Origin: an uncultured virus (IMG/VR IMGVR_UViG_3300000558_000068)
Lineage: Duplodnaviria; Heunggongvirae; Uroviricota; Caudoviricetes
Strand: one strand, 5' to 3'
Virus record (IMG/VR): IMGVR_UViG_3300000558_000068
Location: 1 to 64,000 of that record
Length of the DNA stretch: 64,000 bases
The notes under the pieces were generated by a model, which saw only the letters and a list, made by a program, of their open reading frames with translations, was not told the DNA's origin and made no database searches. The position numbers were made by a program, and so were the translations under genes. Shown here one piece after another: positions 3,131 to 62,017 of this stretch (its first letter is position 1; each line of letters starts with the position of its first letter).

Positions 3131-3922
3131 ATGATTAAAAAGATAGTTTGTATTTCTGATATTCACCTTCGTACATTTAAGCGTCACGATGAATATGTGG
3201 AACAATTTGATAAGTTTTATAAATTGATGGATACTGAAAAACCAGATCGTATAGTTATTTGTGGAGACCTTGTGCATCAAAAAATTCAGATGTCCCCGGA
3301 ACTAATTGATGTATTACGACAATTTTTACAGCGATGTTCTGAAATTGCTAAAACCATAATATTAATAGGTAATCATGATTTTTTAACCAACAATAAAGAA
3401 CGATTGGATGCTTTAACTCCGATAATTGAAGCAATGAATAATCCCAATCTTGTTTATTTTAAGAACAGTGGGTGTTATGAAGATGAAAATGTTGTGTGGG
3501 TCCCGATAACATTAATGGATGATAATAAGGTTCCGGAATGCTTTAATCCAAAGAAAAAAATTAAGGGAAAAACTTATATTGGTTTATTTCATAGTCCATT
3601 AACAGGTGTTGAAACTGATTTGGGATTCTCCTTTGGCGATGTTTATCCTTTGGAAAACTTTGCTGGGCTTGAAATTTGTATCTGCGGCGACATCCACCGT
3701 TATCAAATTATTCAAAAAAGTGATCCATTAATATTTTTCTGCGGAAGCTTTTTACAGCAAAATTATGGGGAAAGTTTATCACATCATGGATACGTTAGAT
3801 TAGATATTGAAACTAAAAAACATGAATTAATTGAAATACCCAATGATTATGGATATTATCAGTTTAAAATATCGGATGTGGATAACGATAAAGATATGGG
3901 GGAAGAATTATTAAATGGGTAA
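3131..3922 (+). CDS. SbcD/Mre11/gp47-like metallophosphoesterase nuclease
   Basis: SDIH, GDLVH, GNHD, GDIH, CGS motifs; upstream of an SMC-like ATPase. Confidence 0.9.
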   Translation: MIKKIVCISDIHLRTFKRHDEYVEQFDKFYKLMDTEKPDRIVICGDLVHQKIQMSPELIDVLRQFLQRCSEIAKTIILIGNHDFLTNNKERLDALTPIIEAMNNPNLVYFKNSGCYEDENVVWVPITLMDDNKVPECFNPKKKIKGKTYIGLFHSPLTGVETDLGFSFGDVYPLENFAGLEICICGDIHRYQIIQKSDPLIFFCGSFLQQNYGESLSHHGYVRLDIETKKHELIEIPNDYGYYQFKISDVDNDKDMGEELLNG

Positions 3923-4064
3923 AGGGACTACTACAGTAATAGTATACGATCCAATGACATTTGAAGTAATAAGTCTGAAGATATATGTATTTACCAAATT
4001 AGAGAGCTATCCTCGTGGTACATATATTCACTATCCAAAAAAATTTAAATTAACAGAAAAATAA
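3915..4064 (+). CDS. Small hypothetical protein (49 aa, not in ORF track)
   Basis: MGKGTTTVIVYDP...KLTEK fills the sbcD-sbcC gap. Confidence 0.35.
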   Translation: MGKGTTTVIVYDPMTFEVISLKIYVFTKLESYPRGTYIHYPKKFKLTEK

Positions 4065-4070
4065 TACAAT

Positions 4071-6788
4071 ATGGCAATTACCGATAAAAGTTACATAAAA
4101 GTAAAATGGGAAGGGGCTCCAGAAGAGTTCACCAAAGAGAAACAAGCACGCATTAAAGCTTATATCCAAAACAAATACGGATGTAAGAATGTCACAGTTC
4201 AATTTAATCCGATCAACGCAAGTGGAACTGAATATACACTTGACCAATCTGAAAATATCTATGATCTAGCCAATCAGAGAAAATTAATCGAACAATTTAT
4301 CACCGAGAACAAATTAGACGTGAATATAGACGATATAATGCGTTTAGATGGTAAGGTGAATGATAAGATGAAACAACAGAAGGACGTTGATTACACCTAT
4401 CGTAAACTCAAAATTAAACGTATCTGGTTCGATAACTTCCTTTCCTTCGGGGCCGATAATGAATTTCCTTTGGAAGATTTACCCGGACTAACTGTAATCA
4501 ATTCAAATCCAGCGAATTATGGCGGTAAGACAATATTAGCAAAAAATTTAATCACATATTTGTTCTTTAATAAAACAGATAGAACCAAAACGGATAGGGA
4601 AATTTTTAATCTATATCGTCCGGAAGAAAATCAGGTTAAGGTAAAAGGATTGATCGATATTAATGGGATTGAGTACATAATTGAACGTGTTATTACAAGA
4701 GCCGGTAAAACTAAAATAACAACCAATTCTCAGTTACATATTGCCAAGGTAGTAAATGGAATTGAGGAAAACTTATCTGAAGAGCAAAGACGTGAAAGTG
4801 AAAAGATTATTGTTGATTCTATCGGAACATATAGTGATTTTTTATTGACCATAATCGCCGATAGCAACACATTAGAAAACTTAATAGAACAGATGCCAAC
4901 CGAGAGAGGTAATCTTGTAACTCGATTCATTGGGCTGGATGTTATTAAGGAAAAAGAAGGTATTTGTAAGGACATTAAAACCGAATGGGAAAAGACAATA
5001 AAATCCAATCAGTACAACATTATCGATATTTTTCAACAAATTCAGACCGATAGAGCCGTTATTACAGAAACAGAGTTAATAGTAAAAGAATCCTTAACAA
5101 AGCTGGAAACAATAATAGCTAGTATAAAGGAAATGGATTTAACAAAAGAAGTCCTGATTGGTAAAAAGAAACCGATTGATGATACATTACTTGGCGTTGC
5201 TATTGAGGAAGAAAAACAAAAACTAGTAACTATAACTGAAAATGGTAAAACTAAAAAAGAAGAATATCAGAAACTAAAAGATGAATTCAAGACCAGAACC
5301 AAGCCTGAATATGATGAAGAAGGACATTTAGCTGTATTACAACAGGAAAAAGACTTAGTTACCGAAGTCCATGATCAAAAAACCATTATTAATAACAAAG
5401 AAAAAGAAATTGTAAATCTTGAACGGGCAAAGGATAAAACAATTCAGGATAAAGAAAAAGAAATTATTACCATTGAACGAACTAATGAACGGGCAATTCA
5501 GGAAAAAGAAAAATCCATCATTACAATTAAGATGGAGCATACCGCAACAATTAAAGCAAAAGATAAAGAAGTTACCGATTTAGAACTAGTAATTAAAAAT
5601 CTGAAAGAAGGTGAGATATGCCCAACATGTAAACGTAAATTTGATAACTGCGACAACTCTGCGACAATTACAGGGCATGAAGCAACCATCACCAAATTAA
5701 AAAAAGAAATTGATAAACTAAAGAAAGCCGATGACCCACGGATTAAGCCAATTCAGGACGAAATCGATGAAATGAAAAAGGCTGAAGACCCTGAAATATC
5801 CAAAATACAAAGTGAAATTAAAACCCTAAAAGAAACCGAAGATCCCAATGTTAAAAAAATTAAAGATGAAATTAAATCCATCAATGAAATCGTAATACCA
5901 AAAATCGAAACGAATAAGGTTAAAAATGCTGCTGATATCGAAAAATATAAGAAACAAAACGACGCTCTTAACCAATATGATAAAGATGAGATTAAAATTG
6001 AGCGTTTAGCTGTTGAAGTGAAAGGATTGGCTCAGGATTATAAGGATCAAGACGATTTAATTAAACGATATAACGATAATGTACTTGCTGTTGATATTAA
6101 TAAGGGAATCGAAAAAGAAATAATCGAAGTTAATTTCCGAATGGAGCAAAAAAATACTGAGAAAGATGATATAACTCGTAGTAAAGAAATAAACCGTGAA
6201 AAGATAAAAACTTTAACCAAAACTATTGATGATAACGAAAAGTTAATTAAAATTATAAATAAAGAACAGGAGATATTAAAGGTATTCGAATATTATTTAA
6301 CTATCTTTGGTAAAAAGGGTATAACAAGCTTAATTCTGAAAACATCAATCCCCGTAATTAATTCAGAGCTGGATCGACTATTAAATGATACCGCAACGTT
6401 TAGTATGGAACTGGATTTAAATTCTAAAAATGACGTTGAATATTGGATGGTGGACAGGGAAACAGGGTTGAAAAAAATGGTAACATCAGGTAGTGGATAC
6501 GAGAAGACAGCAGCTGCACTAGCATTAAGAGCTGTGTTAACAAAAATATCAGTTCTTCCTAAACCGGATATGATAATTTTGGACGAAGTTCTGGGAAAGG
6601 TTGCTGACGAAAATCTCGAAATGATGAAATTTTTGCTGGATAAGATTTCAGAAATGTTTGACAAAGTATTTATGATCACCCACAATAATCTCGTTAATGG
6701 ATGGGCCACTAATATTGTAACTATCGAAAAAATAAATAATATTAGTAGATTAACGTTCAATAAAAACGCAACTAAAGCACAAGCGTAA
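4071..6788 (+). CDS. SbcC/Rad50/gp46-like ATPase
   Basis: NFLSFG, Walker A NYGGKT, coiled coil with CPTC zinc hook, signature SGSGYE, Walker B IILDE, ITH. Confidence 0.92.
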   Translation: MAITDKSYIKVKWEGAPEEFTKEKQARIKAYIQNKYGCKNVTVQFNPINASGTEYTLDQSENIYDLANQRKLIEQFITENKLDVNIDDIMRLDGKVNDKMKQQKDVDYTYRKLKIKRIWFDNFLSFGADNEFPLEDLPGLTVINSNPANYGGKTILAKNLITYLFFNKTDRTKTDREIFNLYRPEENQVKVKGLIDINGIEYIIERVITRAGKTKITTNSQLHIAKVVNGIEENLSEEQRRESEKIIVDSIGTYSDFLLTIIADSNTLENLIEQMPTERGNLVTRFIGLDVIKEKEGICKDIKTEWEKTIKSNQYNIIDIFQQIQTDRAVITETELIVKESLTKLETIIASIKEMDLTKEVLIGKKKPIDDTLLGVAIEEEKQKLVTITENGKTKKEEYQKLKDEFKTRTKPEYDEEGHLAVLQQEKDLVTEVHDQKTIINNKEKEIVNLERAKDKTIQDKEKEIITIERTNERAIQEKEKSIITIKMEHTATIKAKDKEVTDLELVIKNLKEGEICPTCKRKFDNCDNSATITGHEATITKLKKEIDKLKKADDPRIKPIQDEIDEMKKAEDPEISKIQSEIKTLKETEDPNVKKIKDEIKSINEIVIPKIETNKVKNAADIEKYKKQNDALNQYDKDEIKIERLAVEVKGLAQDYKDQDDLIKRYNDNVLAVDINKGIEKEIIEVNFRMEQKNTEKDDITRSKEINREKIKTLTKTIDDNEKLIKIINKEQEILKVFEYYLTIFGKKGITSLILKTSIPVINSELDRLLNDTATFSMELDLNSKNDVEYWMVDRETGLKKMVTSGSGYEKTAAALALRAVLTKISVLPKPDMIILDEVLGKVADENLEMMKFLLDKISEMFDKVFMITHNNLVNGWATNIVTIEKINNISRLTFNKNATKAQA

Positions 6789-8316: not shown

Positions 8317-9192
8317 ATGAAAACAATATTTTTAATTATAATTTTTCTGATCGCATCTTTAATTGGTAATGCACAAAACATCGGAATAAGTGACAATACA
8401 GCATTTAGCCCATCTTTTATGCTGCATTTACAACCAAGCGCCAGTTATGCTTCTGATTTATTTTCAATACAAAATAACACTGGTACTTATTATTTTCATG
8501 TTAAACTGAATGGTCAAACATGTGCTAATACAAATACTCCAGTAATGTCTAATGATGTTTTGACAGGATACGCTAATAGTGCTTCATTAGCTTGGGGAAC
8601 TGCTGGATACCATGTCGGAACTAATGGTGGCGGTGGGTTCTTTCAAATTATTGGCCCCACAAATGGATATAATGCGGGCGAGTCGTGGACTAATGGAACT
8701 GGATGCGCTTTTTTGATTGCTAATAGTAATACGGGGGCAACAAATATTATTGGATTGTGGGCTCAAACTGGCGCTGGAGACAATCGTTATGGAATTTATA
8801 GCCCCGATAGAAATTTAGGATTAACATGGACACTAATATCTGATGGTAGACTCAAAAAAAACACACAACCCGTTAATAGCGTAATGTCTCTTATTAAATT
8901 ATTAGAACCAATCACATATGAATTCGACACAACATTATCAAAAAGTGGAAGGCTGGAATATGGTTTTACATCACAAAACTTAGAAGCTGTATTTCCTGCA
9001 TTGGTATATAAAAATGCTGTATACGACCCAACAATTAAAGTAACACCAAAATCGAAAATACTACAAGAAAATTTTAAATATGACGCAGTTAACTATATTG
9101 GATTAATCGCAATTTTAGTTAAAGGAATGCAAGAGCAACAAAGCGAAATTGATCGACTTAAAGTGGAAATCGAAATCTTAAAATGTGAATAA
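8317..9192 (+). CDS. Signal-peptide protein with C-terminal intramolecular chaperone (Peptidase S74-like) domain
   Basis: Hydrophobic N-terminus ending GNAQ; SDGRLKKN...GFTSQ...FPALV...VNYIGLIAILVKGMQE coiled coil. Confidence 0.8.
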   Translation: MKTIFLIIIFLIASLIGNAQNIGISDNTAFSPSFMLHLQPSASYASDLFSIQNNTGTYYFHVKLNGQTCANTNTPVMSNDVLTGYANSASLAWGTAGYHVGTNGGGGFFQIIGPTNGYNAGESWTNGTGCAFLIANSNTGATNIIGLWAQTGAGDNRYGIYSPDRNLGLTWTLISDGRLKKNTQPVNSVMSLIKLLEPITYEFDTTLSKSGRLEYGFTSQNLEAVFPALVYKNAVYDPTIKVTPKSKILQENFKYDAVNYIGLIAILVKGMQEQQSEIDRLKVEIEILKCE

Positions 9193-10363
9193 AATGAAGT
9201 TTGTTGTTGTAATATTATTTTTATTAATAAATCATCAATTGTTTTCCCAGACCGGTGCAATAAACATTAAAGACAATGGAAATATTATAATGTCCGGGAA
9301 TGTCAATTTGATAATACACCAAACCAGTAATCAAGGTATTGTTAAATCTGGAAATTTACAAGGTGGTATAATATGTGACAACGAACAAAGTCGGGTAATA
9401 TGGGGAGTTTCAACATTATCTGGAAATTATGTTATTCCTTTCAAAATATCTAACACCTCAATTCCACTTATAATGAATATAACATTAGCTGGTGTTGGAG
9501 CCGGGCAAATATTAACATCAACTTATAGAACGAATGTCGCTAATTTTTTATACCCCAATGGTTATGGTTATTTTAATCCTGTAACCAATATGAACTATAA
9601 TGGTGTTGATAATTCTAACAATGCGGTTGATAGGTTTTGGATAATTAACTACGATGGCTATGTAATCAAACCCATATCACAATTTACAATGACATACGAT
9701 CCAGTTAATGAGTTAAATGGGATTATTGAAGTGGATTTAAAGGCACAGTATTGGGACGGGGCTAAATGGGTTTTACCTCCGGATGGAATCGCCGACCCTC
9801 CAAACGATAATGTCAATTCAATACAATCCATTTCACTAAATACTCCATGGGTATTAATAAATAAACTAGTTCCGTTATATTTAACGTTATCTTATTATTA
9901 TGGTAATTGCAATGAAGACGGAACTGTTAGATTAGTATGGGAAACATTACAGGAAATGGGTGTACAATCATTCGAAATTCAGCGATCTTATGATGGTATT
10001 AATTTTGAAATAATTGGCGTAGTTCCCGCTGCAGGAAGTACAACTATGCCTGAAGGATACGATTATGTTGATCCTACGATATATTACGGAACTAGATACT
10101 ATAAACTAATAGAACTAGATTTTAATGGGTATACCGAAGAAATTGGAACGGTCAATGTTAATTGTGGGACACCATCGAATATATCAATACACCCCAATCC
10201 TCTACAATATGGTGAAGAATTAATTATCACTGGGATTGAGGAACAAGATAAAATAGAAGTCTTCGATGTTATTGGTCAAAAAATTCAAATAGAATGTTTA
10301 ATTCCCGGTATTTATATTGTGGTAATTAACAATATATTTATAACAAAGCTAGTTGTAAATTAA
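9185..10363 (+). CDS. Secreted protein resembling Bacteroidota T9SS type-A cargo
   Basis: Signal peptide; LVWET...FEIQRSYDG..F...Y.YVD...YYKL...DFNG module; IHPNP...GIYIV...KLVV tail. Confidence 0.72.
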   Translation: MNKMKFVVVILFLLINHQLFSQTGAINIKDNGNIIMSGNVNLIIHQTSNQGIVKSGNLQGGIICDNEQSRVIWGVSTLSGNYVIPFKISNTSIPLIMNITLAGVGAGQILTSTYRTNVANFLYPNGYGYFNPVTNMNYNGVDNSNNAVDRFWIINYDGYVIKPISQFTMTYDPVNELNGIIEVDLKAQYWDGAKWVLPPDGIADPPNDNVNSIQSISLNTPWVLINKLVPLYLTLSYYYGNCNEDGTVRLVWETLQEMGVQSFEIQRSYDGINFEIIGVVPAAGSTTMPEGYDYVDPTIYYGTRYYKLIELDFNGYTEEIGTVNVNCGTPSNISIHPNPLQYGEELIITGIEEQDKIEVFDVIGQKIQIECLIPGIYIVVINNIFITKLVVN

Positions 10364-10364
10364 A

Positions 10365-11415
10365 ATGAGAGAAATGATTCATCAGATATTGAAAGAAAGT
10401 ACCGAAGAAAAATCAAATCCATTATATAAAGATAAAAAAGTTACAGTTAAGCCGGCAGGTAATAAAGGTAATGGATTATTTGCTGCTGTCGATATTAAAA
10501 AAGGCGATACGATATTATTAGCCAAAGTAAAAATAATGTCAGATAAAGACTGGCAATCAATTAAAGATACCGAACCAGTTAAACTATATGGATTCAGATG
10601 GATGGACGAACATGGTATCCTTCTCGGTAAATGGAAATTCAACTTTAAGGATGTTCAGGAAAAATTGTTATGGAAAAAAACAGACTTCTATAAAGAACAT
10701 TGTGAAGATGCATTAAGATTATCCGGATTCCTATATGTAAACGATATTGATAAAGATACCGATGCTAATGTTGAGGAAATTATTAATGTTGATGATAAAA
10801 TTGTGGGGATAAAAGCAATCCGGGATATTAAAGCTGGTGAAGAACTAATCAAAGAATATAACTACGACTGGCGCGAAGAATTTAAATCGTGGCGTGAAGG
10901 TATAACAGAAGGACTAAATATACCAAAGGCACAATATCAATATGGAGATCCAATACAAATTGTTGGCGCCAGTCGAAATAAACCGTGGAAATTCGGACAT
11001 TATATTGATAGAGATTCAGCTGTTGTTTGGTATCGTGACGAGCTATCTGCAGGATCCCAGCCAATGAACCTAAAATATATTAAAAAAAGAATCATTAACG
11101 AAGGTTTAAATTTACCTAANCAAGNNCGATCNNNACACCCCGGAAGGCTGGTTTAAAGATATATTAAACAATTTAACTGAGTATAGATCCCCAAACAGGC
11201 CACTTAACATCTTTTATAAATTGGATAATGAAATTGTAATGGAAATGGAATTCGCTGACCAGGATCAAAATTCTGGCTATTTATGGGTCAGTTACACCAA
11301 AATATGGTCAGTTTTTGAAACTAGATTTAACATGGAATACCAACAAATACAAGGCTTGATCAAAGCTATGGTGGAGGAGACCTATAATTTAAGGGGAGTA
11401 ACACCCTATAAATAA
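10365..11415 (+). CDS. Modular SET-domain protein; probably one gene through 11415, apparent frameshift lies in N-containing bases 11120-11134
   Basis: SET motifs KGNGLFA..DIKKG and AIRDIKAGEEL..Y; two EGLN(I/L)PK linkers; frame after the Ns reads TPEGWFKDILNNL, matching DTPEDWFKNLLTDL that follows the same linker in ORF 56777. Confidence 0.7.
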
Positions 11416-11603
11416 ATCTGCGCTTCGTTGATACAGGTGGAGGAGACCTATAATTTAAGGGGAGTAACACCTCAGTTTCAAATACAGAACTGGGGCCCCA
11501 TGGTGGAGGAGACCTATAATTTAAGGGGAGTAACACCATTATTGTTACATCATCAATTTGCTCGTAAGGTGGAGGAGACCTACAATTTAAGGGGAGTGAC
11601 GAC
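11370..11603 (+). CRISPR. Orphan CRISPR-like mini-array, 4 repeats / 3 spacers, type VI-B-like geometry
   Basis: GGTGGAGGAGACCTATAATTTAAGGGGAGTAACACC at 11370, 11436, 11502 (identical) and 11568 (4 mismatches); unique 30-bp spacers 11406-35, 11472-501, 11538-67; GGTG/CACC terminal pairing; no cas gene recognised; strand is inferred. Confidence 0.85.
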
Positions 11604-12697
11604 TAAATAATCTTAATATCTTTCGTTAATGCAAATTTTGTTCCTTTATCGGGGATTGAAATGTGTCCGGTATCTGTAACGCTTAAATTAACCCCAAGCT
11701 CGTGATTTTTATATTCTGAAACTGTACCAGTGATACCATGTTTATGTTGTTTTAGCCATTTTTCCAAACTAGCCAAATATTGGAATAATAGTTCTCCATA
11801 TGGTATGCTGTAAGCAGTATCGCGATTATTGGGATATGTAAACAAATTGATTTTTTCCCCGACAACATCAACCCTTGTTTTTATATTGTTTATTTTAATT
11901 GGTGTTGTATCAGCATATGGGTCGTATTTGGATTTGTATATGTGTTTAATAAAGTTGGATCCATCATCTGGCTTATTATCAACAAAATATTCGACACCAA
12001 TTTTAGGATCCGGTTCTATTGTAACTTTAATAAATGATTCTTTTTCGTTATATGTTGGTACTTTATCATTTCGGTATTTAAGAAACATTCCTGATCTAAG
12101 AACGATATATTCATTAGGTTTTGTGTTATCTGTTTCTATTTTTTTGATTAATATTTGGCTTGATCCTCTTCCTTCTATTGATATGTCGTTTGTTGTCGGG
12201 TATAATTGTTTGACATCATTGCTTGTCCCTTGAAAGTCAATTATGGGGTCAATATCACTAAAATTGCCATAACTATCAAGATTACGTTTACCGACAGAAC
12301 CCATTGAATTGTTTGCGTTAATGAGCGATGGGATAATCGGCCCAATATAATCGTAACATAAATCATTTTGAGCAATGTCATAAGTAATAACTTTAACCAT
12401 ATCATTAACTGTGGGGAAGATATTATATAATCTCGGTAAAAATGGGTTAGCTATTTTTAGTGTGTCTTTTTCTGGTAATTTGAAAATAATACGCCCGGTT
12501 CCTTTATCTATTGTGCGTTTTGTTGTTAATCCGCTAACTGTATCATTTTTACCTTCAGTTTCGATTAGTTGCTTACGATAAACTTCCCATGACGGATCGC
12601 CTTCAATTGCTAATACCTGACAAACAAAAATAGAACGAGTACTTAGTGCGCTAGTTAAATCAGGATTGTATGATGTATTTTTTAAATTAAGTAACAT
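11603..12697 (-). CDS. Baseplate hub/spike-like (gp5/gpV-like) protein
   Basis: OB-fold-like PFLPR..IFPTVNDMVKV, IEGRGSSQI, C-terminal GELL...HKH metal-apex-like motif. Confidence 0.5.
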   Translation of the reverse strand: MLLNLKNTSYNPDLTSALSTRSIFVCQVLAIEGDPSWEVYRKQLIETEGKNDTVSGLTTKRTIDKGTGRIIFKLPEKDTLKIANPFLPRLYNIFPTVNDMVKVITYDIAQNDLCYDYIGPIIPSLINANNSMGSVGKRNLDSYGNFSDIDPIIDFQGTSNDVKQLYPTTNDISIEGRGSSQILIKKIETDNTKPNEYIVLRSGMFLKYRNDKVPTYNEKESFIKVTIEPDPKIGVEYFVDNKPDDGSNFIKHIYKSKYDPYADTTPIKINNIKTRVDVVGEKINLFTYPNNRDTAYSIPYGELLFQYLASLEKWLKQHKHGITGTVSEYKNHELGVNLSVTDTGHISIPDKGTKFALTKDIKII

Positions 12698-37759: not shown

Positions 37760-40117
37760 TTAGTTAATAATTGATTTGTAGAATTCTGCACGATCTCTTG
37801 TTACTTTTTCGAGATTATATTTTGGTGTTATATCCTCATGTAATTTTTCAGCCATATCGGTCACAAATGAAGGATTGTCGATTAATAGTTTTAGGTATTT
37901 AAACCACAACTTATGATTTTTAATACTTGGGACTAATAAAGCATTTCCATCTTTAGTAAAATGCCCGTCTACGTAAGCGTTTTTAAGATCAATTGTATAG
38001 GGGCCGAAATCCTGTGCAATTAATGCTTTTTTATGAAACGCGGCCTCCACGCATTTTAGTTGGGAATTGTGATTAATAATACCGTTGGCATTATACATAT
38101 GTACACTATCAACTTCAATATCATATACTGTATTAATAGTGTTTTCGATTGTCTTTATACTATCAGTGAATGTTTGTGGGATAAAATGATTACTTCTTTT
38201 ACCGCTTATCATTTTGTATAAATGATCACATTTGTGTTGTGAAATAAAACCAATTTCATTGTAAAATATTTCGCAACCTTCTCTATGTAAATCAAGCCGA
38301 TAATAATATTTTCGATAGTGTTTATTGTATGAATATCTGATAAAACCTTGTATTCCAAAACCCAATAACAAAGTTTGTATTTGTTTAATCAATTTCAAAT
38401 CTTTACTGGTTAAACTAACTGGGCTATGCTCGCCAACAGTTCCATCCGATTCAAATAATCCGCGTAAAAACTCTCTAATTACACTTTTAGGAGACTCTAA
38501 TATTACTTTTGGGACCCTAAATGTTTTACCATGACTTCCACACCAGCCATATTTTTTAGCAATTGATAAAAAATTAATACAAGTTGAACAAATACTAACT
38601 CCAAATCCTTCTTTAGCTAAACTATTTGAACATCTCTTATCTGGTTTTTTGTCACGCACTAATGGATTTAATCCAATCGATTTGTAAAGGCTTACAATAT
38701 CTTCAACAACATTAGTATGTCGTTTATCACACGTAATTGATATGCTATTACCGTTATAATTTCCATCGCCTAACATATATCCTAACAATCTTCCCCAGTT
38801 TTCATTTATTCGAATTCTAGGTAACATATTTTCGTCCGAATTATTAATTTTTTCCTGAGTTATATTTTTAGTTAATAACATTGGATATGTAATTTCCTGA
38901 TATTCGGTTTGCGAAAATATTGGGCGGGTAAGTTTAATTTTATCCCCAATTTTTAAATCTTGTAATTGTACCCATTCATTGTTAATAAAAATTTGATGGT
39001 GAGGAGTCCCTTCAATTTCATATCCATCGTTCATTGTAATTTTAATTGTTGGAACGTTTTCATATTTAAAGTGGTTTACTATTTCATTAAATTTCCCATC
39101 TATTTCAGTTTGTAAAGATAATTTTTGGTCAACAATGTCGCTTATGTGTTTAAATCCCTTATTGGTTGATATTAATGAGTCACCAACAATACATTTTACT
39201 AGATTAAACGTATGCTCTTTTAACGGAGCTAATGAAATGTCAAATAAATTATAGTTCTTAGCATATGTTGTAACAGGTTTTGTCCAAATTCTACGATAAG
39301 GTTGTCCTTCGTCAGCGTAAGGTTCTTTTGAGTATTCCTGAAGATGTTTTATGTAATCCTGATCAGATATTATTTTATAGTTATCAGTAAAAATTCGTTC
39401 ATATTTAACCCATATTGTTTCGTGAGGTTGAATTTTACGTTTCTTTCTTTCTTTTGTCTTTGGATTAAATTCGGTTATTTCCCCACGAATGTCAAAACCA
39501 CAAACAACAAATTGAGTTTTTTTATCATAACCAACAGCGTGAAGTTGATTAATTGCTCCGCTAATTATTTCTAAATCAGCGAGATGAGAACTCCCACCGA
39601 GGAACCCCACACGAACTCTATCTGTTTGTTTTGGTAAGTTTTCAGGTATAAATTGTCTTTCAGTTGGATCAATAGCATTTGGAATAACAACAACATTTTT
39701 ATTAAACTTAGAAATTTCACCAGCAAATATTGGCGTGGTTGTCATTACATAATCCGGTAAAGATAAATTACCTGATATTTTTTTATCTAAACCCTCACCT
39801 ACGATTAATTGATATGCCGGATGATCCATTGTTGGTTTCCAGTAATCATCAATATCCATGATTGTTTTAACGCCCAATTTACGAAGTTGTCCCATGCGCC
39901 GTTCCATCTGTTCATAAGGACCAAATGTACGGTGAAAATGTATTATTTGGTATTTCTTTAAAAAATCTTCATTATCAATATTGGGTTTATAATCAATGTC
40001 AATATGGAAATCATCAGGAAACAATTGTTCTAGCTTAATATGCGGACCAACACTGCGAAAATTTGCTACTCCAGTTCTATCGCTGCAGATTACTAATACG
40101 TTAATTTTACCACTCAT
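37760..40117 (-). CDS. GT-B/GT4-like glycosyltransferase containing an intein
   Basis: MDIDDYW, VIPNAID, GGSSH..DL, DISLAPL...FN..K|S.LK..EA. Confidence 0.85.
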   Translation of the reverse strand: MSGKINVLVICSDRTGVANFRSVGPHIKLEQLFPDDFHIDIDYKPNIDNEDFLKKYQIIHFHRTFGPYEQMERRMGQLRKLGVKTIMDIDDYWKPTMDHPAYQLIVGEGLDKKISGNLSLPDYVMTTTPIFAGEISKFNKNVVVIPNAIDPTERQFIPENLPKQTDRVRVGFLGGSSHLADLEIISGAINQLHAVGYDKKTQFVVCGFDIRGEITEFNPKTKERKKRKIQPHETIWVKYERIFTDNYKIISDQDYIKHLQEYSKEPYADEGQPYRRIWTKPVTTYAKNYNLFDISLAPLKEHTFNLVKCIVGDSLISTNKGFKHISDIVDQKLSLQTEIDGKFNEIVNHFKYENVPTIKITMNDGYEIEGTPHHQIFINNEWVQLQDLKIGDKIKLTRPIFSQTEYQEITYPMLLTKNITQEKINNSDENMLPRIRINENWGRLLGYMLGDGNYNGNSISITCDKRHTNVVEDIVSLYKSIGLNPLVRDKKPDKRCSNSLAKEGFGVSICSTCINFLSIAKKYGWCGSHGKTFRVPKVILESPKSVIREFLRGLFESDGTVGEHSPVSLTSKDLKLIKQIQTLLLGFGIQGFIRYSYNKHYRKYYYRLDLHREGCEIFYNEIGFISQHKCDHLYKMISGKRSNHFIPQTFTDSIKTIENTINTVYDIEVDSVHMYNANGIINHNSQLKCVEAAFHKKALIAQDFGPYTIDLKNAYVDGHFTKDGNALLVPSIKNHKLWFKYLKLLIDNPSFVTDMAEKLHEDITPKYNLEKVTRDRAEFYKSIIN
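38066..39193 (-). mobile_element. Intein with LAGLIDADG homing endonuclease (376 aa)
   Basis: Starts CIVGDS; block B GTPHH; LLGYMLGDG and FLRGLFESDG; VYDIEV...HN followed by Ser+1. Confidence 0.93.
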
Positions 40118-42518: not shown

Positions 42519-43416
42519 TTTGCATATAATTTATAATGTAACTTTTATCGTTGGGATTTAGATCATTAACACCAACGCCATTTAAAAACTGCCATATAAT
42601 TGCTGCTTTGTTTGTCTTGTCCACACTTTCACGGTTAATGATGTCAATTAAATAAATAAGCTTACGAGCAATTAATGGATTTTTTTCTTTTAATTGATCA
42701 TAATAAGGTATTGAGTATTCGTTACCCATTTGTTGATTNCGTGTTTTGGTTACGATATCATTTCTTTGTGTTTTATTTGCTAACACATCTTCAACAATAT
42801 CAACTTCTTCTAATGGAATTTTTGGGTTGTGTGTTTTTTGTTGATCTGTGGATGTCTTCCTAAAAAAACGTTCTTGTCTTGCTTTAATTTCTTCTTTATC
42901 GTATCCCGCCAATTTCGCTTTATTTTCGAAATCTATTGGATCTGTTGATTGGGCATAAATACTACCCAACGCCTCTGCGGTTTTATCTACTTCGGTAATT
43001 TCGCGACTTAAAAATTGTGAATCAACCCCTTTTAATGGAGATACCCTGGTTCTTGTTTTAACTTTAGGCGCCTCGTCAGTAGTACTCTCACCATAGAATT
43101 TACGATACATCATTGTTCTTGACATACCCTGACGGTTCATACTAATAGAGTCGTCTGTTGTAGATTTGGATGTGATTTCGCTACTGCTTGGAGCTCCGAT
43201 GGAAGAATGTTTATCTCCTTGAATTAAAGCAGTTCCTTCATCGTTAACAAGCTCATTTAATTCAGTATCTTCTAATTCGTTTTTTAATTTATTGGCCTTG
43301 TCTTCAGATTCTTTAAATAGTTTTTGATTTACACCTTTATTATCGGTATACTCAATGACCCATCTAATAATAACGTCCTTGTTCTTTTCTGGATAGATAT
43401 TTATTTGCTTGTTCAT
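42508..43416 (-). CDS. Hypothetical protein
   Basis: 302-aa ORF (one N base). Confidence 0.6.
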   Translation of the reverse strand: MNKQINIYPEKNKDVIIRWVIEYTDNKGVNQKLFKESEDKANKLKNELEDTELNELVNDEGTALIQGDKHSSIGAPSSSEITSKSTTDDSISMNRQGMSRTMMYRKFYGESTTDEAPKVKTRTRVSPLKGVDSQFLSREITEVDKTAEALGSIYAQSTDPIDFENKAKLAGYDKEEIKARQERFFRKTSTDQQKTHNPKIPLEEVDIVEDVLANKTQRNDIVTKTXNQQMGNEYSIPYYDQLKEKNPLIARKLIYLIDIINRESVDKTNKAAIIWQFLNGVGVNDLNPNDKSYIINYMQSGK

Positions 43417-55806: not shown

Positions 55807-56790
55807 ATGGTCATTCTTGGATATAAAAATTTAATAAGAAAAGTATTGCTCGAGTATCACGGAAACCAAACAGATATTGATGAAATTGAAACTATAATAA
55901 CGAACGACATTGTTGATANCACAACNNANACGANNATATCGGTAATAGTTAATCAGGGAAGAAGTGTTATAATTAGTGAAATTGAAGTTGATGACATTCA
56001 GAGACAAAACAATACACAAATCCAAAAAATAAAAACTGAAGTCAGCATCACAATTACAGATCAAACACAAGCCACAGGTCAATTTAACCCAAAAACTATC
56101 ACATTAATTGACAATGATATGTATTCTATTGAGTTGTCCGTTGTTGTTAATCTAAACCCACAAGACATTGATAATTTAAAGAAGGAAATTGGTAAGGTGA
56201 TATCTCATGAGCTACATCACGCTTTTAGAGAAATAAAATTGATAGGTAAACAATCCAGATCAAAAATATATAATCTGGCCCAAAACTTATCGAAACTAGG
56301 ATTTAAGGATTTATATAATGATTACCCGGAACTAAAAGATTTTATGGTAATGTTCTATCTGGCACTACCACAAGAAATCACGGCAAGAGTACAAGAAACG
56401 ACATCAATATTAAAAAACATCGAATCAACAAACTATAATGACGTTACTAATCAATTATTGCGTTACCAGCCGCTTATTGACGCTAAAAAAATGATAAAAT
56501 ATGATATGAACGAAATAAAAAATGTCGACAACGATAAGCTCAATAATTTTATTACCGAATTTAATAAAAATATCAAATACTACGGTGATAAAGAAAATAT
56601 TGACATAAAAACTAAAAATACGGTCGATTCATTCGTTTATTATTGGGGTAGCAAAATTAGTAGGGGTGGAATGGAATTGTTTAGAAAAATATCAACGTTG
56701 GCATCTGATAAATGCTGGAATGATAAATCTCCTGAAAACCGAATTAAACATGATTTACTAGCACAATTGATGGGGGATGATTATGATTAA
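55807..56790 (+). CDS. HExxH zincin-like paralog B
   Basis: LLEYHG, SHELHHAF, EITARVQE; Ns near 55919-55935. Confidence 0.7.
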   Translation: MVILGYKNLIRKVLLEYHGNQTDIDEIETIITNDIVDXTXXTXISVIVNQGRSVIISEIEVDDIQRQNNTQIQKIKTEVSITITDQTQATGQFNPKTITLIDNDMYSIELSVVVNLNPQDIDNLKKEIGKVISHELHHAFREIKLIGKQSRSKIYNLAQNLSKLGFKDLYNDYPELKDFMVMFYLALPQEITARVQETTSILKNIESTNYNDVTNQLLRYQPLIDAKKMIKYDMNEIKNVDNDKLNNFITEFNKNIKYYGDKENIDIKTKNTVDSFVYYWGSKISRGGMELFRKISTLASDKCWNDKSPENRIKHDLLAQLMGDDYD

Positions 56791-57436
56791 GCTACTAAAT
56801 TTATTGATAGAAGAAATAACTGATTGGGAATTTGGTTATGAAAGACCGTTCAGGTTCGATTTAAACAGCACTGTCAATGAGGGACGTTTTCGCCTGTATC
56901 ATCCGGACGACCTAGATTCATATTTCAGAACAAAAACACATCCATGGACAAAAGAAGTCATTGAAGGGGTATCGTATGTAATGGGGAAACGAAAAGATAA
57001 TAGAAAACTAACAATTCAAGCAATACGTTTTAATAAAGGATACTGGAATGAAGATCAAGCAAAGAACTGGTTTAACGATAACAAAAAGAACTTCAGATTT
57101 AATATTGGACAAATTGATGAAGGGCTAAATCTACCAAAAAAGAAACTTGATACCCCAGAAGACTGGTTTAAAAACTTGTTAACTGATCTAGAAATAAATA
57201 AACAATTTGATGATATTTTTTTTTTCAATATTAGTGACCACGATAGGGAATATATGGCGTATTTTGTTAGTGAAAAAGAATTATTGGTTAGTAACATCAA
57301 AATTTGGTCAGTATTACGTAAAAAATATCAATTGAGCACAAAAGAAATTCGGCAATTAGTGAAAAACAAAATAGAAGGTGAGTTTGGTATTGATATTGAT
57401 AGTGTTTTTTGTGGCATTGGAAGTTATCGTCGATAG
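56777..57436 (+). CDS. Two-module protein with EGLNLPK linker
   Basis: C-terminal module resembles the module preceding the CRISPR-like array (TPE.WFK..L..L, L.VS..KIWSV). Confidence 0.7.
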   Translation: MIMIKLLNLLIEEITDWEFGYERPFRFDLNSTVNEGRFRLYHPDDLDSYFRTKTHPWTKEVIEGVSYVMGKRKDNRKLTIQAIRFNKGYWNEDQAKNWFNDNKKNFRFNIGQIDEGLNLPKKKLDTPEDWFKNLLTDLEINKQFDDIFFFNISDHDREYMAYFVSEKELLVSNIKIWSVLRKKYQLSTKEIRQLVKNKIEGEFGIDIDSVFCGIGSYRR

Positions 57437-61454: not shown

Positions 61455-61498
61455 ACAAAATAAATATAATTGACGGATATTTATTGTAAAGATTAAAA

Positions 61499-62017
61499 AT
61501 GAGTCAAAACATTGTGCCAATAAACAGAAATTCGAAATTCTACGGACTAAATGACATGCAAACAGAGATAAACATGGGTAGGGAATATATCGAGGGTGAC
61601 ATAGATTTTCGTGTTGTCTTATACCGGGTTGATCATGAAAAAACAAACACGGACGATTTATATGGTGAAGTTGAAGCCTATCAAATAAAATATAAATCAC
61701 CAATAGAATTAAGTTGCTCAGTATCGTTAAAACCAAAACAAAATAAACAATATGGGACTAACGCATCACTAATTAGAGAAGAATGGGGTAATCTTGAATT
61801 TAACGTGTATGAAGAACAATTAAAAGAACTTGATATTGAGATTAATAAAGGAGACTACGTTGGATATCCTGTCCGCGAGAATTTTTTTAAGTATTTTAGC
61901 GTGGTTGATAATGATAAGGTTAATGATGACACAACCAGATTATTGGGATTGAAAAAAGGGTTCTATCGTCATATCGTGTGTACACCAACAGATAACAGCG
62001 AATTTATGGTTAATTAA
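61499..62017 (+). CDS. Head closure/neck protein, T4 gp14-like
   Basis: VVLYRVD...DDLYGE; LKELDIEINKGDYV; structural context. Confidence 0.6.
   Translation: MSQNIVPINRNSKFYGLNDMQTEINMGREYIEGDIDFRVVLYRVDHEKTNTDDLYGEVEAYQIKYKSPIELSCSVSLKPKQNKQYGTNASLIREEWGNLEFNVYEEQLKELDIEINKGDYVGYPVRENFFKYFSVVDNDKVNDDTTRLLGLKKGFYRHIVCTPTDNSEFMVN

Follow-up and report, generated by a model that had tools for sequence, protein, structure and literature searches.

A regular array of 36-nt repeats and unique spacers begins inside the 3' end of a protein-coding phage gene, the last 12 conserved codons of which are at the same time the first repeat. The array lies in a window of 64,000 nt, the whole stretch of DNA analysed here (positions 1 to 64,000 of the IMG/VR record IMGVR_UViG_3300000558_000068), and the same arrangement recurs in most assessable relatives of the gene. 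Our preferred reading, to which we assign a probability of about 0.6, is that this is a genuine phage-borne CRISPR mini-array in which the conserved gene end serves as both leader and first repeat and which a host-type integrase extends. In literature searches, we found no published description of arrays starting inside a gene, or of guide arrays growing directly out of protein-coding sequence.

Array anatomy in the window

The array spans positions 11370-11603 and is made up of four 36-nt repeats and three unique 30-nt spacers, with a start-to-start period of 66 nt (Table 1). Its unit, GGTGGAGGAGACCTATAATTTAAGGGGAGTAACACC, is present in three exact copies and a fourth with four mismatches; the number of repeat matches expected by chance was 0 in 100 shuffles. 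Repeat 1 begins in frame within the final 12 codons of a small module, and all four repeats lie in the reading frame of the module gene: frame 1 reads ...IKAMVEETYNLRGVTPYK (stop) ICASLIQ VEETYNLRGVTP QFQIQNWGPM VEETYNLRGVTP LLLHHQFARK VEETYNLRGVTT K (stop). This translation bears out the preliminary description of the DNA, made from the letters and their open reading frames, which had held that the final residues of the module are encoded by repeat 1, that every repeat is in frame, that the stop comes from spacer 1 and spacers 2 and 3 contain none, and that three of the four mismatches in repeat 4 are synonymous and followed by a lysine codon and a stop.

Table 1. Positions of the array, the module gene and associated features in the window
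Feature	Positions	Strand	Remark
Upstream ORF with SET domain, frame 0	10365..11156	+	ends 20 nt into the module, in the other frame
Junction of SET ORF (frame 0) and module (frame 1)	11118..11136	+	six N's: 11120, 11125-6, 11132-4
Module coding sequence, P0001, 92 aa + stop	11137..11415	+	predicted alpha-beta fold
Repeat 1 (leader-proximal)	11370..11405	+	final 36 nt of the conserved module coding sequence
Spacer 1, 30 nt	11406..11435	+	finishes Pro codon, then Tyr-Lys-stop
Repeat 2, exact	11436..11471	+	
Spacer 2, 30 nt	11472..11501	+	without in-frame stop
Repeat 3, exact	11502..11537	+	
Spacer 3, 30 nt	11538..11567	+	without in-frame stop
Repeat 4, terminal degenerate copy and AAA TAA	11568..11610	+	4 mismatches, 3 synonymous
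Convergent gene, 364 aa	11603..12697	-	its stop codon touches or overlaps the final base of repeat 4
Paralogue, 219-aa ORF with module at C-terminus (57140-57436)	56777..57436	+	EGLNLPKK linker before module

The synonymous changes in repeat 4 are TAT>TAC, GTA>GTG and ACA>ACG, and the remaining one, CC>AC, replaces Pro with Thr before the closing AAA TAA; counting codon position alone, at least three of four changes at third positions has p ~0.11 (hand calculation). This copy is probably a fossil of the original gene end. The same idea had been put forward in the preliminary description and gains support from relatives of the locus, where terminal copies lead into a stop codon followed by a trailer, the latter conserved from one paralogous unit to the next.

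Also as first described, the array has no non-coding 5' leader: in place of an AT-rich leader, conserved coding sequence leads straight into repeat 1. At the other end, the stop codon of the convergent gene, which matched no Pfam family, meets repeat 4, so that the array occupies the entire gap between two convergent genes. Promoter-like sites in the region were at shuffle level (14, against a shuffle mean of 11.0), and a terminator scan gave the same picture. The window as a whole is part of an IMG/VR virus record and bears phage genes in a Pfam scan; the carrier phage has a genome of about 330 kb.

The module protein and its genomic setting

The AlphaFold2 model of the module (pLDDT 96) places a helix at residues 68-83 and a strand at residues 88-91, and the repeat-1-encoded residues 80-91 (VEETYNLRGVTP) are predicted to lie within the fold. 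No Pfam or PHROGs family was matched by the module, Foldseek returned no PDB match at E<=1e-3, and a search of the ESM Atlas recovered viral hypothetical clusters only (scores <=0.86). The best VIA-align match, the N-terminal region of MCM8/9 (Z 4.6), was rejected as lying within the noise range of the tool. Across 39 sequences, W57 is the sole position to reach 90% conservation, and there are no conserved catalytic residues. The module is often the C-terminal piece of larger, unrelated proteins, including SET-domain proteins (3/18) and a PcfJ-like protein (1/18).

A SET-domain ORF (PF00856, E 1.9e-9) also precedes the module in the window. It comprises the SET domain, a middle piece of ~55 aa and two EGLN(I/L)P linkers (about 10902-10928 and 11097-11117), and shares 53% identity with P0014, in which SET domain, EGLNLPK and module are fused in a single ORF. 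In the window sequence as it stands, no start codon of the module's own precedes 11221, and a fusion of the two ORFs would need a +1 shift; the junction, with its six N's, may reflect an ambiguous assembly, a genuine frameshift or a fusion that has broken. In the close relatives P0152, P0002, P0154 and P0155, the module stands alone and begins MDIKKPKLLCLSKPDPNTPEGWFK.

Two paralogues lack arrays. The one within the window is 28% identical to the module (E 6e-8) in an alignment that reaches the repeat-coded residues; it ends in KIEGEFGIDID..., without the NTG...ACACC ends of the repeat, and the earlier statement that it carries no array holds, there being no further copy downstream. The other, also array-less, lies beyond the window, on the minus strand at 64750-65013 of the 75-kb record G000.

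Coupling of module and array across the family

Module relatives comprised 504 cluster representatives at E<=1e-3 (HMMER), all of them metagenomic or viral. Searches of GenBank phages with P0001 and P0240 (tblastn) gave no matches, and pattern search and tblastn did not detect the module in prokaryote genome contigs, which is weak evidence of absence given how narrow the patterns were. The preliminary description had noted that the overlap would be incidental if homologues ended before the repeat. They do not: HMMER matches extend to query residue 90-91, and the AlphaFold2 fold is predicted to include residues 80-91.

Among related loci from IMG/VR and metagenomes, 13 were distinct and assessable; 12 of them have arrays of 2 to 10 copies with a spacing of 65-68 nt, and in each of these 12 the first copy is the gene end. 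Whole-record scans of four phage fragments recovered 11 module copies, 8 with arrays (G000 1/3, G001 0/1, G002 2/2, G003 5/5). Pooled at the DNA level, 18/21 distinct module copies with usable DNA carry an array of 65-68-nt period in which the first repeat is the gene end. Proteins tell the same story: in 46 of the 77 tails of sufficient length for assessment, the C-terminal motif recurs in frame, always exactly 10 aa later, and a further 12 show a copy of the motif in a shifted frame. The co-occurrence count proposed at the outset thus comes to 18/21 DNA copies and at least 58/77 assessable protein tails. The preliminary suggestion of de novo array birth in this phage, on the other hand, does not stand—the arrangement is common to modules down to 25% identity and is thus inherited.

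Module and array also multiply together. In G003 they have been duplicated as a unit (5/5 units, two in tandem), up to 5 units fall within one 108-kb fragment, and tandem module-array-module ORFs occur (for example, P0003 and P0005). A BLAST search of the G002 array against the four phage records returned repeat matches only. Most arrays have 1-3 spacers, with a maximum of 9, and at L019 the first stop of the ORF comes only after 4 spacers have been read through. Degenerate terminal copies, like copy 4 of the window, were found at L006/L007, L012, L015, L017 and L019, and at L024, L025, L027 and L031; in every case seen, the degenerate copy is the one farthest from the gene.

Spacer content

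Spacers turn over between relatives. Five loci (L009, L010, L012, L014, and L015) have a common repeat and different spacers, as do L006 and L007, and at least 6 other sequences adjoin the window's repeat in contigs from the same samples; across the array, these contigs showed no joints that would mark the end gaining spacers. Spacer length is nearly constant: the 33 spacers measured, from the window and from 12 related loci, range from 29 to 32 nt, and 25 of them have exactly 30 nt.

For the coupled scheme first proposed, in which each acquisition also rewrites the protein's C-terminus, selection on what spacers encode finds no support. In-frame stops make up 13/271 spacer codons, compared with 15-23 in the other five frames, a difference that is not significant, and 9/30 spacers contain in-frame stops, no fewer than in other frames.

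Spacer 2 of L014 has three matching sites in the related contig L010, from which it differs at 2, 2 and 3 of 30 positions; this spacer was the only one of the 33 to match anything in a small comparison set, and an exact scan with the L014 protospacer as query gave no match. The window's own three spacers have no other copy in the window, and their 24-mers are absent from IMG/VR.

Constraint on the repeat sequence

The repeat ends carry nucleotide-level constraint beyond that imposed by the protein, and repeat types are decoupled from module divergence. The first repeat codon is NTG in 13/13 loci (8 repeat types), against a gene-body background of GTG in 7/51 Val codons and of TTG plus CTG in 10/86 Leu codons, and the repeat Thr codon is ACA in 12/13 loci versus 10/26 in gene bodies—a bias that, measured on array-bearing loci only, may partly reflect which gene ends attract integration. 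In reverse complement, the leader-distal end reads G-N-T-G-T in all 9 distinct repeats (GGTGT in 7, GCTGT in 1, and GTTGT in 1). Modules whose bodies are only 17-21% identical can have identical 11-aa repeat-coded tails, and among the 18,750 pairs with body identity below 30%, 282 agree at 10 or more of the 11 tail residues; identical tails on modules this divergent point to an outside constraint on repeat type.

Whether repeat variation preserves amino acids, a hairpin or both had been posed as a test in the preliminary description, and the answer is divided. Later copies differ from the gene-embedded copy by an excess of synonymous changes (19/40 differences, versus 23% expected; p=7e-4), in keeping with the first possibility. 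The hairpin finds no such backing: RNAalifold gave no consensus structure for nine distinct repeats, in which a 4-bp terminal stem alone is kept (86% of cells, one compensatory change) and the inner stem of the window's repeat fold is unconserved (59% of cells paired). Taken singly, repeats are no more stably folded than shuffled sequences (z about -1). Upstream of the repeat, nucleotide conservation among seven paralogues shows no excess (0.83-0.94, with the repeat itself at 0.93). A leader-repeat hairpin, reported for type VI arrays in the available part of one paper (PMC13187072), was not predicted at the window array (z = 0.11).

Searches for cas genes and for relatives of the repeat

Pfam searches detected no cas genes in 59 window ORFs or in 54 ORFs around 11 related loci, and neither Cas1 (PF01867) nor Cas9 (TIGR01865) was found in the four phage fragments, each only 9-33% complete. 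No tracrRNA-like anti-repeat was found in G000. The 24-nt repeat core had no exact match in one genome each of 185,579 prokaryote species or in IMG/VR, and a second repeat type was likewise unmatched in the exact scan. Rfam searches of the region (E<=10) and of six related loci (E<=1) matched no CRISPR-DR family, yielding chance snoRNA-like and sRNA rows only, and blastn of the array against GenBank phages returned chance matches only (E>=0.2).

A model for array growth and its alternatives

From these data, we infer which integrase and effector might serve the arrays, and how the arrays might grow, be transcribed, be processed and be used. The body of the module gene would stand in for a leader, and its last 36 nt for the leader-proximal repeat. 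An integrase of the Cas1-Cas2 type, most likely the host's, with a 36-bp repeat ruler and 29-32-bp spacers, would insert at the junction of gene body and repeat. Each insertion would duplicate the 36 nt, so that the ORF retains its structurally required last 12 codons and gains a random tail and a stop, and the original end of the gene, stop and trailer included, would be pushed downstream to decay as the terminal repeat. The array is presumably co-transcribed with the gene, and its crRNAs may be used by a Cas effector of the host or one encoded elsewhere in the phage; the likeliest use would be against competing related phages, with the occupation of host Cas proteins as an alternative. To our knowledge, neither a coding leader nor the presence of several units in one genome is a known feature of CRISPR arrays.

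Several other explanations deserve consideration. The arrays might be tolerated, functionless by-products of an accidental hot spot, in which the 3' end of the module resembles a leader-repeat junction and attracts off-target integration by host Cas1-Cas2. We think this improbable while giving it real weight. The repeat is indeed a local gene end duplicated at ruler length, as is said of off-target integration, and no cas genes were found nearby; the spacers are unprotected from stops, almost no protospacer matches were found, and the arrays are short. A by-product should nevertheless be sporadic, and the arrays are instead present at the great majority of DNA copies and protein tails, including all 7 units of G002 and G003. 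Nor would an accident readily account for the rare NTG and ACA codons maintained at repeat ends across 8 repeat types, or for the same repeat-coded tail on modules that are otherwise so divergent, and the fixation of rare integrations in lytic phages would be expected to need selection or very high rates.

A bolder view holds that module and array form one co-evolving, self-duplicating unit, a new phage-borne guide system whose protein acts on its own repeat; we give this only a small chance. Were it true, the module might show a borrowed integrase where to insert, or might bind the repeat-spacer RNAs and pass them on; a giant phage would possess at least a dozen guide cassettes, each growing independently and with no classical cas neighbour; and the units would be living examples of the origin of a CRISPR array from a protein-coding gene end. 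The corresponding mechanism, in which the module binds or processes repeat RNA or directs integration at the end of its own gene and needs no cas neighbour, seems to us a slightly longer shot still. Against it, the module has 92 aa and no conserved catalytic residues, W57 alone reaching 90%; array-less paralogues exist in the same genome, the module is often merely the C-terminal piece of unrelated larger proteins, and no leader-repeat RNA structure is predicted. These points have to be set against the strict physical coupling of the two elements, which duplicate together in G003 and in the tandem ORFs P0003 and P0005, the predicted membership of the repeat-coded residues in the fold, the lack of a Pfam or PHROG family or a clear fold match, and the finding of no cas genes near any unit.

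Alternatively, the arrays might act as RNA decoys, an anti-CRISPR strategy in which repeats mimic those of the host and many units swamp the host's Cas proteins with harmless guides, in which case the spacers would be irrelevant. There is precedent, as far as the available text of the sources goes, in phage repeats that inhibit Cas complexes (Racrs, PMC10651486) and in viral crRNA-like RNAs that compete for Cas (bioRxiv 10.1101/2024.10.29.618823), and the several units per genome and scarcity of spacers with targets would fit. We nonetheless hold decoys to be rather unlikely: Racrs are solitary, whereas the spacers here are regular and turn over, one spacer matches a related phage contig, and the 185,579-species scan supplied no host repeat for comparison. 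Finally, a repeat at the level of protein—the 22-codon period as a tandem peptide repeat or a device for varying the C-terminal tail—is scarcely credible despite the four in-frame copies in the window, the 46 homologues that read through at least one further copy and the 4 spacers read through at L019, because spacers of 29, 31, and 32 nt shift the next copy out of frame (as seen in at least 12 homologues), meaning that DNA was copied and not peptide, and since 9/30 spacers contain stops and the repeated 12 residues, modelled as the end of a helix and an edge strand, would not be able to fold alone.

If the mini-array reading is right, a phage-only gene family has a coding gene for a leader and, in that gene's last 12 codons, the first repeat; this offers a concrete route for arrays to start and persist at a gene end. 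A 36-nt stretch under both protein and repeat constraint lends itself naturally to working out which repeat positions the integrase or effector requires. Several units per giant-phage genome would suggest heavy phage investment in borrowed CRISPR machinery, the aim of which could be inter-phage warfare or counter-defence, and this is testable in Bacteroidota hosts with II-C/VI-B systems. Pipelines that mask ORFs miss such arrays, so phage-borne arrays may be undercounted.

Comparison with known systems

CRISPR arrays are taught as non-coding, a leader being followed by repeats and spacers. The module arrays have much in common with this plan: repeats of constant length with unique spacers of near-constant length, spacer turnover between close relatives, and a degenerate leader-distal terminal repeat. 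They differ at the leader, which in the generic array is non-coding, AT-rich and promoter-bearing and which is here replaced by coding sequence. Closer still are the virus-borne mini-CRISPR arrays reportedly described by Medvedeva and colleagues in 2019, which are likewise short, cas-less, regular in geometry and located in viral genomes, with spacers that vary between related viruses. According to the available portion of a review, mini-array spacers match related viruses, a pattern that the match between L014 spacer 2 and L010 fits, and mini-array repeats are described as identical to those of the host; it says nothing on gene overlap, the terms 'overlap' and 'protein-coding' having 0 occurrences in the review (PMC11656645). 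In the module arrays, by contrast, the 3' end of genes of one conserved family forms the first repeat, with no non-coding leader, up to 5 units occur in one 108-kb fragment, and no host repeat was found in the prokaryote genomes scanned.

Two other systems place a guide element within a gene. Off-target Cas1-Cas2 integration, which Nivala and colleagues are said to have reported in 2018 under the name 'neo-CRISPR', reportedly duplicates a repeat-length genomic stretch, possibly in a gene, so that the 'repeat' is whatever sequence lay at the site, as it is with the module gene end. Neo-CRISPR events are said to be sporadic, however, whereas the module arrays sit at the same site in most members of the family and have conserved repeat-end codons. 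In TnpB and Cas12n, the guide scaffold (omega-RNA and tracrRNA, respectively) is encoded within the 3' end of the nuclease gene, such that, as in the module, a single piece of DNA codes for the C-terminus of a protein and also for a functional part of a guide RNA. There, the protein is an RNA-guided nuclease and the overlap is with the scaffold; here, it is a 92-aa domain and the overlap is with the first repeat.

Racrs, as presented in the available part of their description (Camara-Wilpert et al. 2023, PMC10651486), are phage-encoded CRISPR repeats without cas genes, like the module arrays, and differ from them in being solitary and without regular spacers, where 18/21 module units have 2-10 regularly spaced copies. 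The Racr finder, according to the same text, masks confident ORFs before its search, so gene-embedded repeats would be missed. Among bacterial systems, the available text on the II-C and VI-B loci of F. columnare (Hoikkala et al. 2021, PMC8092290) describes 36-bp repeats with a common leader-distal 5'-GTTGT-3' and base 36 leader-proximal, and VI-B arrays that have no cas1/cas2 of their own and borrow the II-C integrase. Those Flavobacteriia arrays, as far as that text goes, have AT-rich non-coding leaders and lie beside cas9/cas13b on bacterial chromosomes, whereas no cas was found for the module arrays. Compared on length and motif alone, the two are alike in a 36-nt repeat and a GTTGT-like end, and both, by the same partial account, finish in a degenerate terminal repeat.

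The gene end and the array are coupled across the family

A repeat search and translation bore out all descriptive statements that the preliminary description had made of the window's array, including the three synonymous third-position changes in repeat 4 and the lack of a non-coding leader on the 5' side. Copies 1-3 are identical and copy 4 has four mismatches, the three spacers (30 nt each) are mutually unrelated, and chance alone yields no such repeat set (0 in 100 shuffles). Translated in frame from the preceding ORF, the stretch reads ...IKAMVEETYNLRGVTPYK and a stop, then VEETYNLRGVTP twice more, and lastly VEETYNLRGVTTK and a stop, with the terminal copy continuing into AAA TAA.

This coupling of a gene end to an array is family-wide. 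Of 150 homologous proteins, 145 contain domain copies that extend to the C-terminal end of the module model, 157 copies in all, of which 113 end in Thr-Pro. After ...VEEHYKLxGxTP, many homologues (e.g., P0009, P0125, P0128, P0145) continue for about 10 residues and then show the identical 12 residues again; others read the repeat DNA frame-shifted, RWKNITNW being VEEHYKLG shifted by one base. Among 77 assessable tails (at least 17 aa), 46 contain an in-frame second copy, each exactly 10 residues later, 12 more bear the shifted-frame signature, and partial copies can be seen in several of the other 19.

At the DNA level, we gathered 17 related loci (3 from IMG/VR and 14 from metagenomes) and dropped three duplicates (L011, L013, and L016, the same as L010, L009, and L015) and L008, which has only 31 nt downstream. 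In 12 of the 13 loci left, 2-10 copies are spaced 65-68 nt apart and the first coincides with the final 36 nt of the module ORF, the second copy being weak in L012 and L017 (mismatches, 8 of 34); L005 has no array. A profile scan of four phage records recovered 11 module copies, 8 with arrays—1/3 in G000, which holds the window, 0/1 in G001, 2/2 in G002, and 5/5 in G003, where two of the five are adjacent. The association of homologues with arrays that the preliminary description had put up for checking thus holds in 18 of 21 distinct DNA copies (pooled), as it does in the in-frame and shifted tails, and the three array-less copies have diverged C-termini without the Thr-Pro end.

Coordinates of features in the window and its record
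Feature	Position	Strand	Remarks
Two ORFs with signal-peptide-like N-termini	8317-10363		directly upstream of SET gene
SET-domain ORF	10365-11156		Pfam SET E 1.9e-9; upstream of module
EGLN(L/I)PK(K) peptide motif	10902-10928, 11097-11117, 57120-57143		joint between unrelated modules
Module	11137-11415		frame +1 relative to upstream SET-domain ORF
36-nt unit, four copies	11370-11603		start-to-start 66 nt
Sugar-modifying gene run, ~20 kb	15856-36182	-	within phage window
Intein-containing gene	37760-40117 or 58554-61736	-	LAGLIDADG homing endonuclease + intein splicing domain
Intein-containing gene	37760-40117 or 58554-61736	-	SNF2-family helicase, intein-interrupted
Third module paralogue	G000 64750-65013, outside window	-	E 1.3e-22 to profile; 26% identity to P0001 (the window's module)

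The repeat encodes part of a widespread protein domain

Homology and structure prediction indicate that the module represents a genuine protein domain of wide occurrence, with the repeat encoding part of its predicted fold. A phmmer search of 1.84 billion representatives returned 504 proteins at E<=1e-3, 39 of them at E<=1e-10; most alignments take in the repeat-encoded residues as well, reaching query residue 90-91. An AlphaFold2 model built with 39 homologues (pLDDT 96, pTM 0.86) places the repeat-coded residues inside the fold; its last helix spans residues 68-83 and its last strand 88-91, which would make VEETYNLRGVTP structurally integral. The family has no match in Pfam or PHROG, and structural neighbours were absent from Foldseek at E<=1e-3 and unconvincing in VIA-align (best Z 4.6). 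A profile search yielded 166 proteins at E<=1e-5; the 120 listed among them all come from metagenome, IMG, or ENA sources and include no informative name. GenBank phages yielded no copy of the module, nor, with narrow search patterns, did representative prokaryote genomes. The third paralogue has a diverged C-terminus and no array.

Family arrays behave like CRISPR arrays

Across the family, the arrays have the behaviour of CRISPR arrays. Spacer length is 29-32 nt (30 nt in 25/33), and the same repeat occurs with entirely different spacers in L009, L010, L012, L014, and L015, and likewise in L006 vs L007; contigs from the window's samples terminate at repeat boundaries in at least six other 25-30-nt sequences, as loose ends with no joints to indicate polarity. 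In every array having a degenerate copy, it is the one farthest from the gene. In three paralogous G002/G003 units, the terminal copy leads into ...ACC TGA, after which come a trailer common to the three and the next gene's ATG. From their sequence, these terminal copies, like that of the window, look as an original gene end would after spacer insertion upstream, in agreement with the earlier suggestion that repeat 4 may be the ancestral gene end. In L010, whose contig bears a near-identical repeat, an intergenic element present in three copies is matched at each of them by the second spacer of L014 (2, 2, and 3 mismatches in 30).

Read as reverse complement, the leader-distal end is G-N-T-G-T in 9/9 distinct repeats. 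For the II-C and VI-B repeats of F. columnare, the repeat descriptions in Hoikkala et al. 2021 (PMC8092290) give 36 bp and a common leader-distal 5'-GTTGT-3', with base 36 adjoining the leader and the VI-B array borrowing the II-C integrase; our arrays share with these the 36-nt length and the leader-distal motif, the two features compared. No cas gene was found near any unit (window ORFs and surroundings of related loci), and neither Cas1 nor Cas9 in the four phage fragments, which at 9-33% completeness provide weak evidence. Comparing the repeat core with representative prokaryote genomes revealed no host repeat, the array and related loci had no match to an Rfam CRISPR-DR family, and the 75-kb record contains no anti-repeat. 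For the window's own three spacers, no targets were found in the window or, as 24-mers, in IMG/VR.

The repeat is constrained as protein and as nucleic acid

The repeat is constrained in both capacities. On the protein side, distinct single-base differences between later and gene-embedded copies are synonymous in the gene's frame in 19/40 cases vs 23% expected (binomial p=7e-4), and 23/40 fall at third codon positions, counting changes within one codon separately and including some paralogous arrays that are not independent. On the nucleic-acid side, repeat positions 1-4 can form a 4-bp terminal stem with positions 33-36; 86% of cells are paired there, and one change, G-C to C-G, is compensatory. 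No consensus RNA fold was predicted for the repeats and shuffle controls were not exceeded. The first repeat codon is NTG (GTG, CTG, TTG, or ATG) in 13/13 loci and 8 repeat types, vs 7/51 Val codons (GTG) and 10/86 Leu codons (TTG+CTG) in gene bodies, and the Thr codon near the repeat 3' end is ACA in 12/13 loci vs 10/26 in gene bodies; because only array-bearing loci were scored, this bias may partly be a precondition for integration and not its consequence.

Tail comparisons show the repeat-coded tail to be decoupled from the remainder of the module. The tail EETYNLRGVTP occurs unchanged on modules with 17-21% body identity, and at least 10 of 11 tail residues are common in 282 of 18,750 pairs below 30% body identity (mean 4.8). 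In the homologue P0241, the shifted-frame next copy (GWRRPII and a stop) fixes 21 nucleotides identical to the window's repeat; together, these observations fit a repeat held by an outside partner, e.g., a Cas system. In spacers, stops make up 13/271 codons in the gene's frame vs 15-23 in the other five frames (composition predicts 7.3%), and 9/30 spacers contain an in-frame stop vs 11-18 in other frames. The tail is indeed rewritten with each acquisition, as had been proposed, but these counts give no sign of selected tail content.

A probable phage-borne mini-array with a gene as leader

The best-supported reading, to which we assign a probability of about 0.6, sees in the element a CRISPR mini-array that is carried by a phage and has a new architecture. 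In it, a conserved gene would take the leader role, its last 36 nt serving as first repeat; the array would be extended by an integrase whose ruler measures 36 bp, most probably a II-C-type Cas1-Cas2 of the host; and the old gene end would stay behind as terminal repeat. Off-target spacer integration is a known phenomenon, and the arrays might instead mark an accidental hot spot of it, which we consider unlikely given how hard this is to reconcile with the family-wide array frequency, the codon bias at repeat ends, and the repeat types common to divergent modules. The joint duplication of module and array makes a functional protein-guide unit attractive, but a 92-aa domain without conserved catalytic residues and the existence of array-less paralogues leave it quite improbable. 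We give little credence to an RNA decoy, and a purely protein-level repeat, contradicted by the frame-shifted copies, is scarcely credible.

Viral mini-arrays and solitary phage repeats are already known, according to a review (PMC11656645) and to PMC10651486, respectively; at least one published repeat finder, that of the latter paper, masks ORFs beforehand. In the literature searched, we found no published description of arrays whose first repeat is a conserved gene's end.

Surroundings of the module and the host phage

Six N's lie exactly at the out-of-frame SET/module junction (11120-11134) and may reflect strain heterogeneity or assembly ambiguity; the window has 13 N's, scattered, with further clusters at 42739 and 55919-55935. 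Since relatives include both an in-frame SET-linker-module fusion (P0014) and stand-alone genes of 109-124 aa (P0152, P0002, P0154, P0155), the window's module could be expressed either fused or separately. Copies of EGLN(L/I)PK(K) differ in their codons, so the conservation is at the protein level; the motif could serve polyprotein-like phage proteins as a linker or as a protease site. Its arrangements in the window are SET / ~55-aa piece / module and 120-aa N-domain / module, and it occurs up to three times in the homologues P0003, P0004, P0013, and P0040.

The window makes up the first 64 kb of an IMG/VR virus record of 75 kb, for which the CheckV completeness of 23% implies a phage of roughly 330 kb. 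Besides genes for phage replication, the window carries two inteins, an integrase, and a large cluster for glycosylation; a Cas family is absent from its 59 ORFs. The sugar-modifying run encodes GDP-mannose dehydratase, epimerase, DegT aminotransferase, several methyltransferases, fucosyl-, galactosyl-, and family-2 glycosyltransferases, and GNAT. An ORF at 55807-56790, directly upstream of the window's array-less paralogue, has a weak match to DUF5700, a putative zinc-peptidase.

Spacer 1 of the related locus L018 aligns with window positions 39021-39050, within an intein-bearing ORF (22/30 bases, 21-nt core with 1 mismatch, E 1.4e-4 in a small local database); too weak for a protospacer, this match might reflect targeting of a relative of the window's phage. 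L010 and L011 are two ends of one 17.5-kb metagenome contig with 2.4-kb inverted duplicates (locus positions 3183-5617), each containing module and array; the inner boundary (3183) coincides with one of the three L014-spacer match sites, and the duplicates represent a genuine terminal inverted repeat or else an artefact of the assembly. In sequencing runs X1-X4 of samples holding the window, summed contig depth over 11140-11610 (module and repeat) is 100-800 vs 22 on the flanking phage contig; this depth and the many variant bases there indicate that the same hydrocarbon-metagenome samples contain several related variants of the module side by side. Of the two ORFs upstream of the SET gene, one encodes a tail-spike chaperone domain (Peptidase_S74), and the other ends in a hydrophobic, beta-rich C-terminus of a kind typical of Bacteroidota secretion-sorting domains, a hint to host phylum only.
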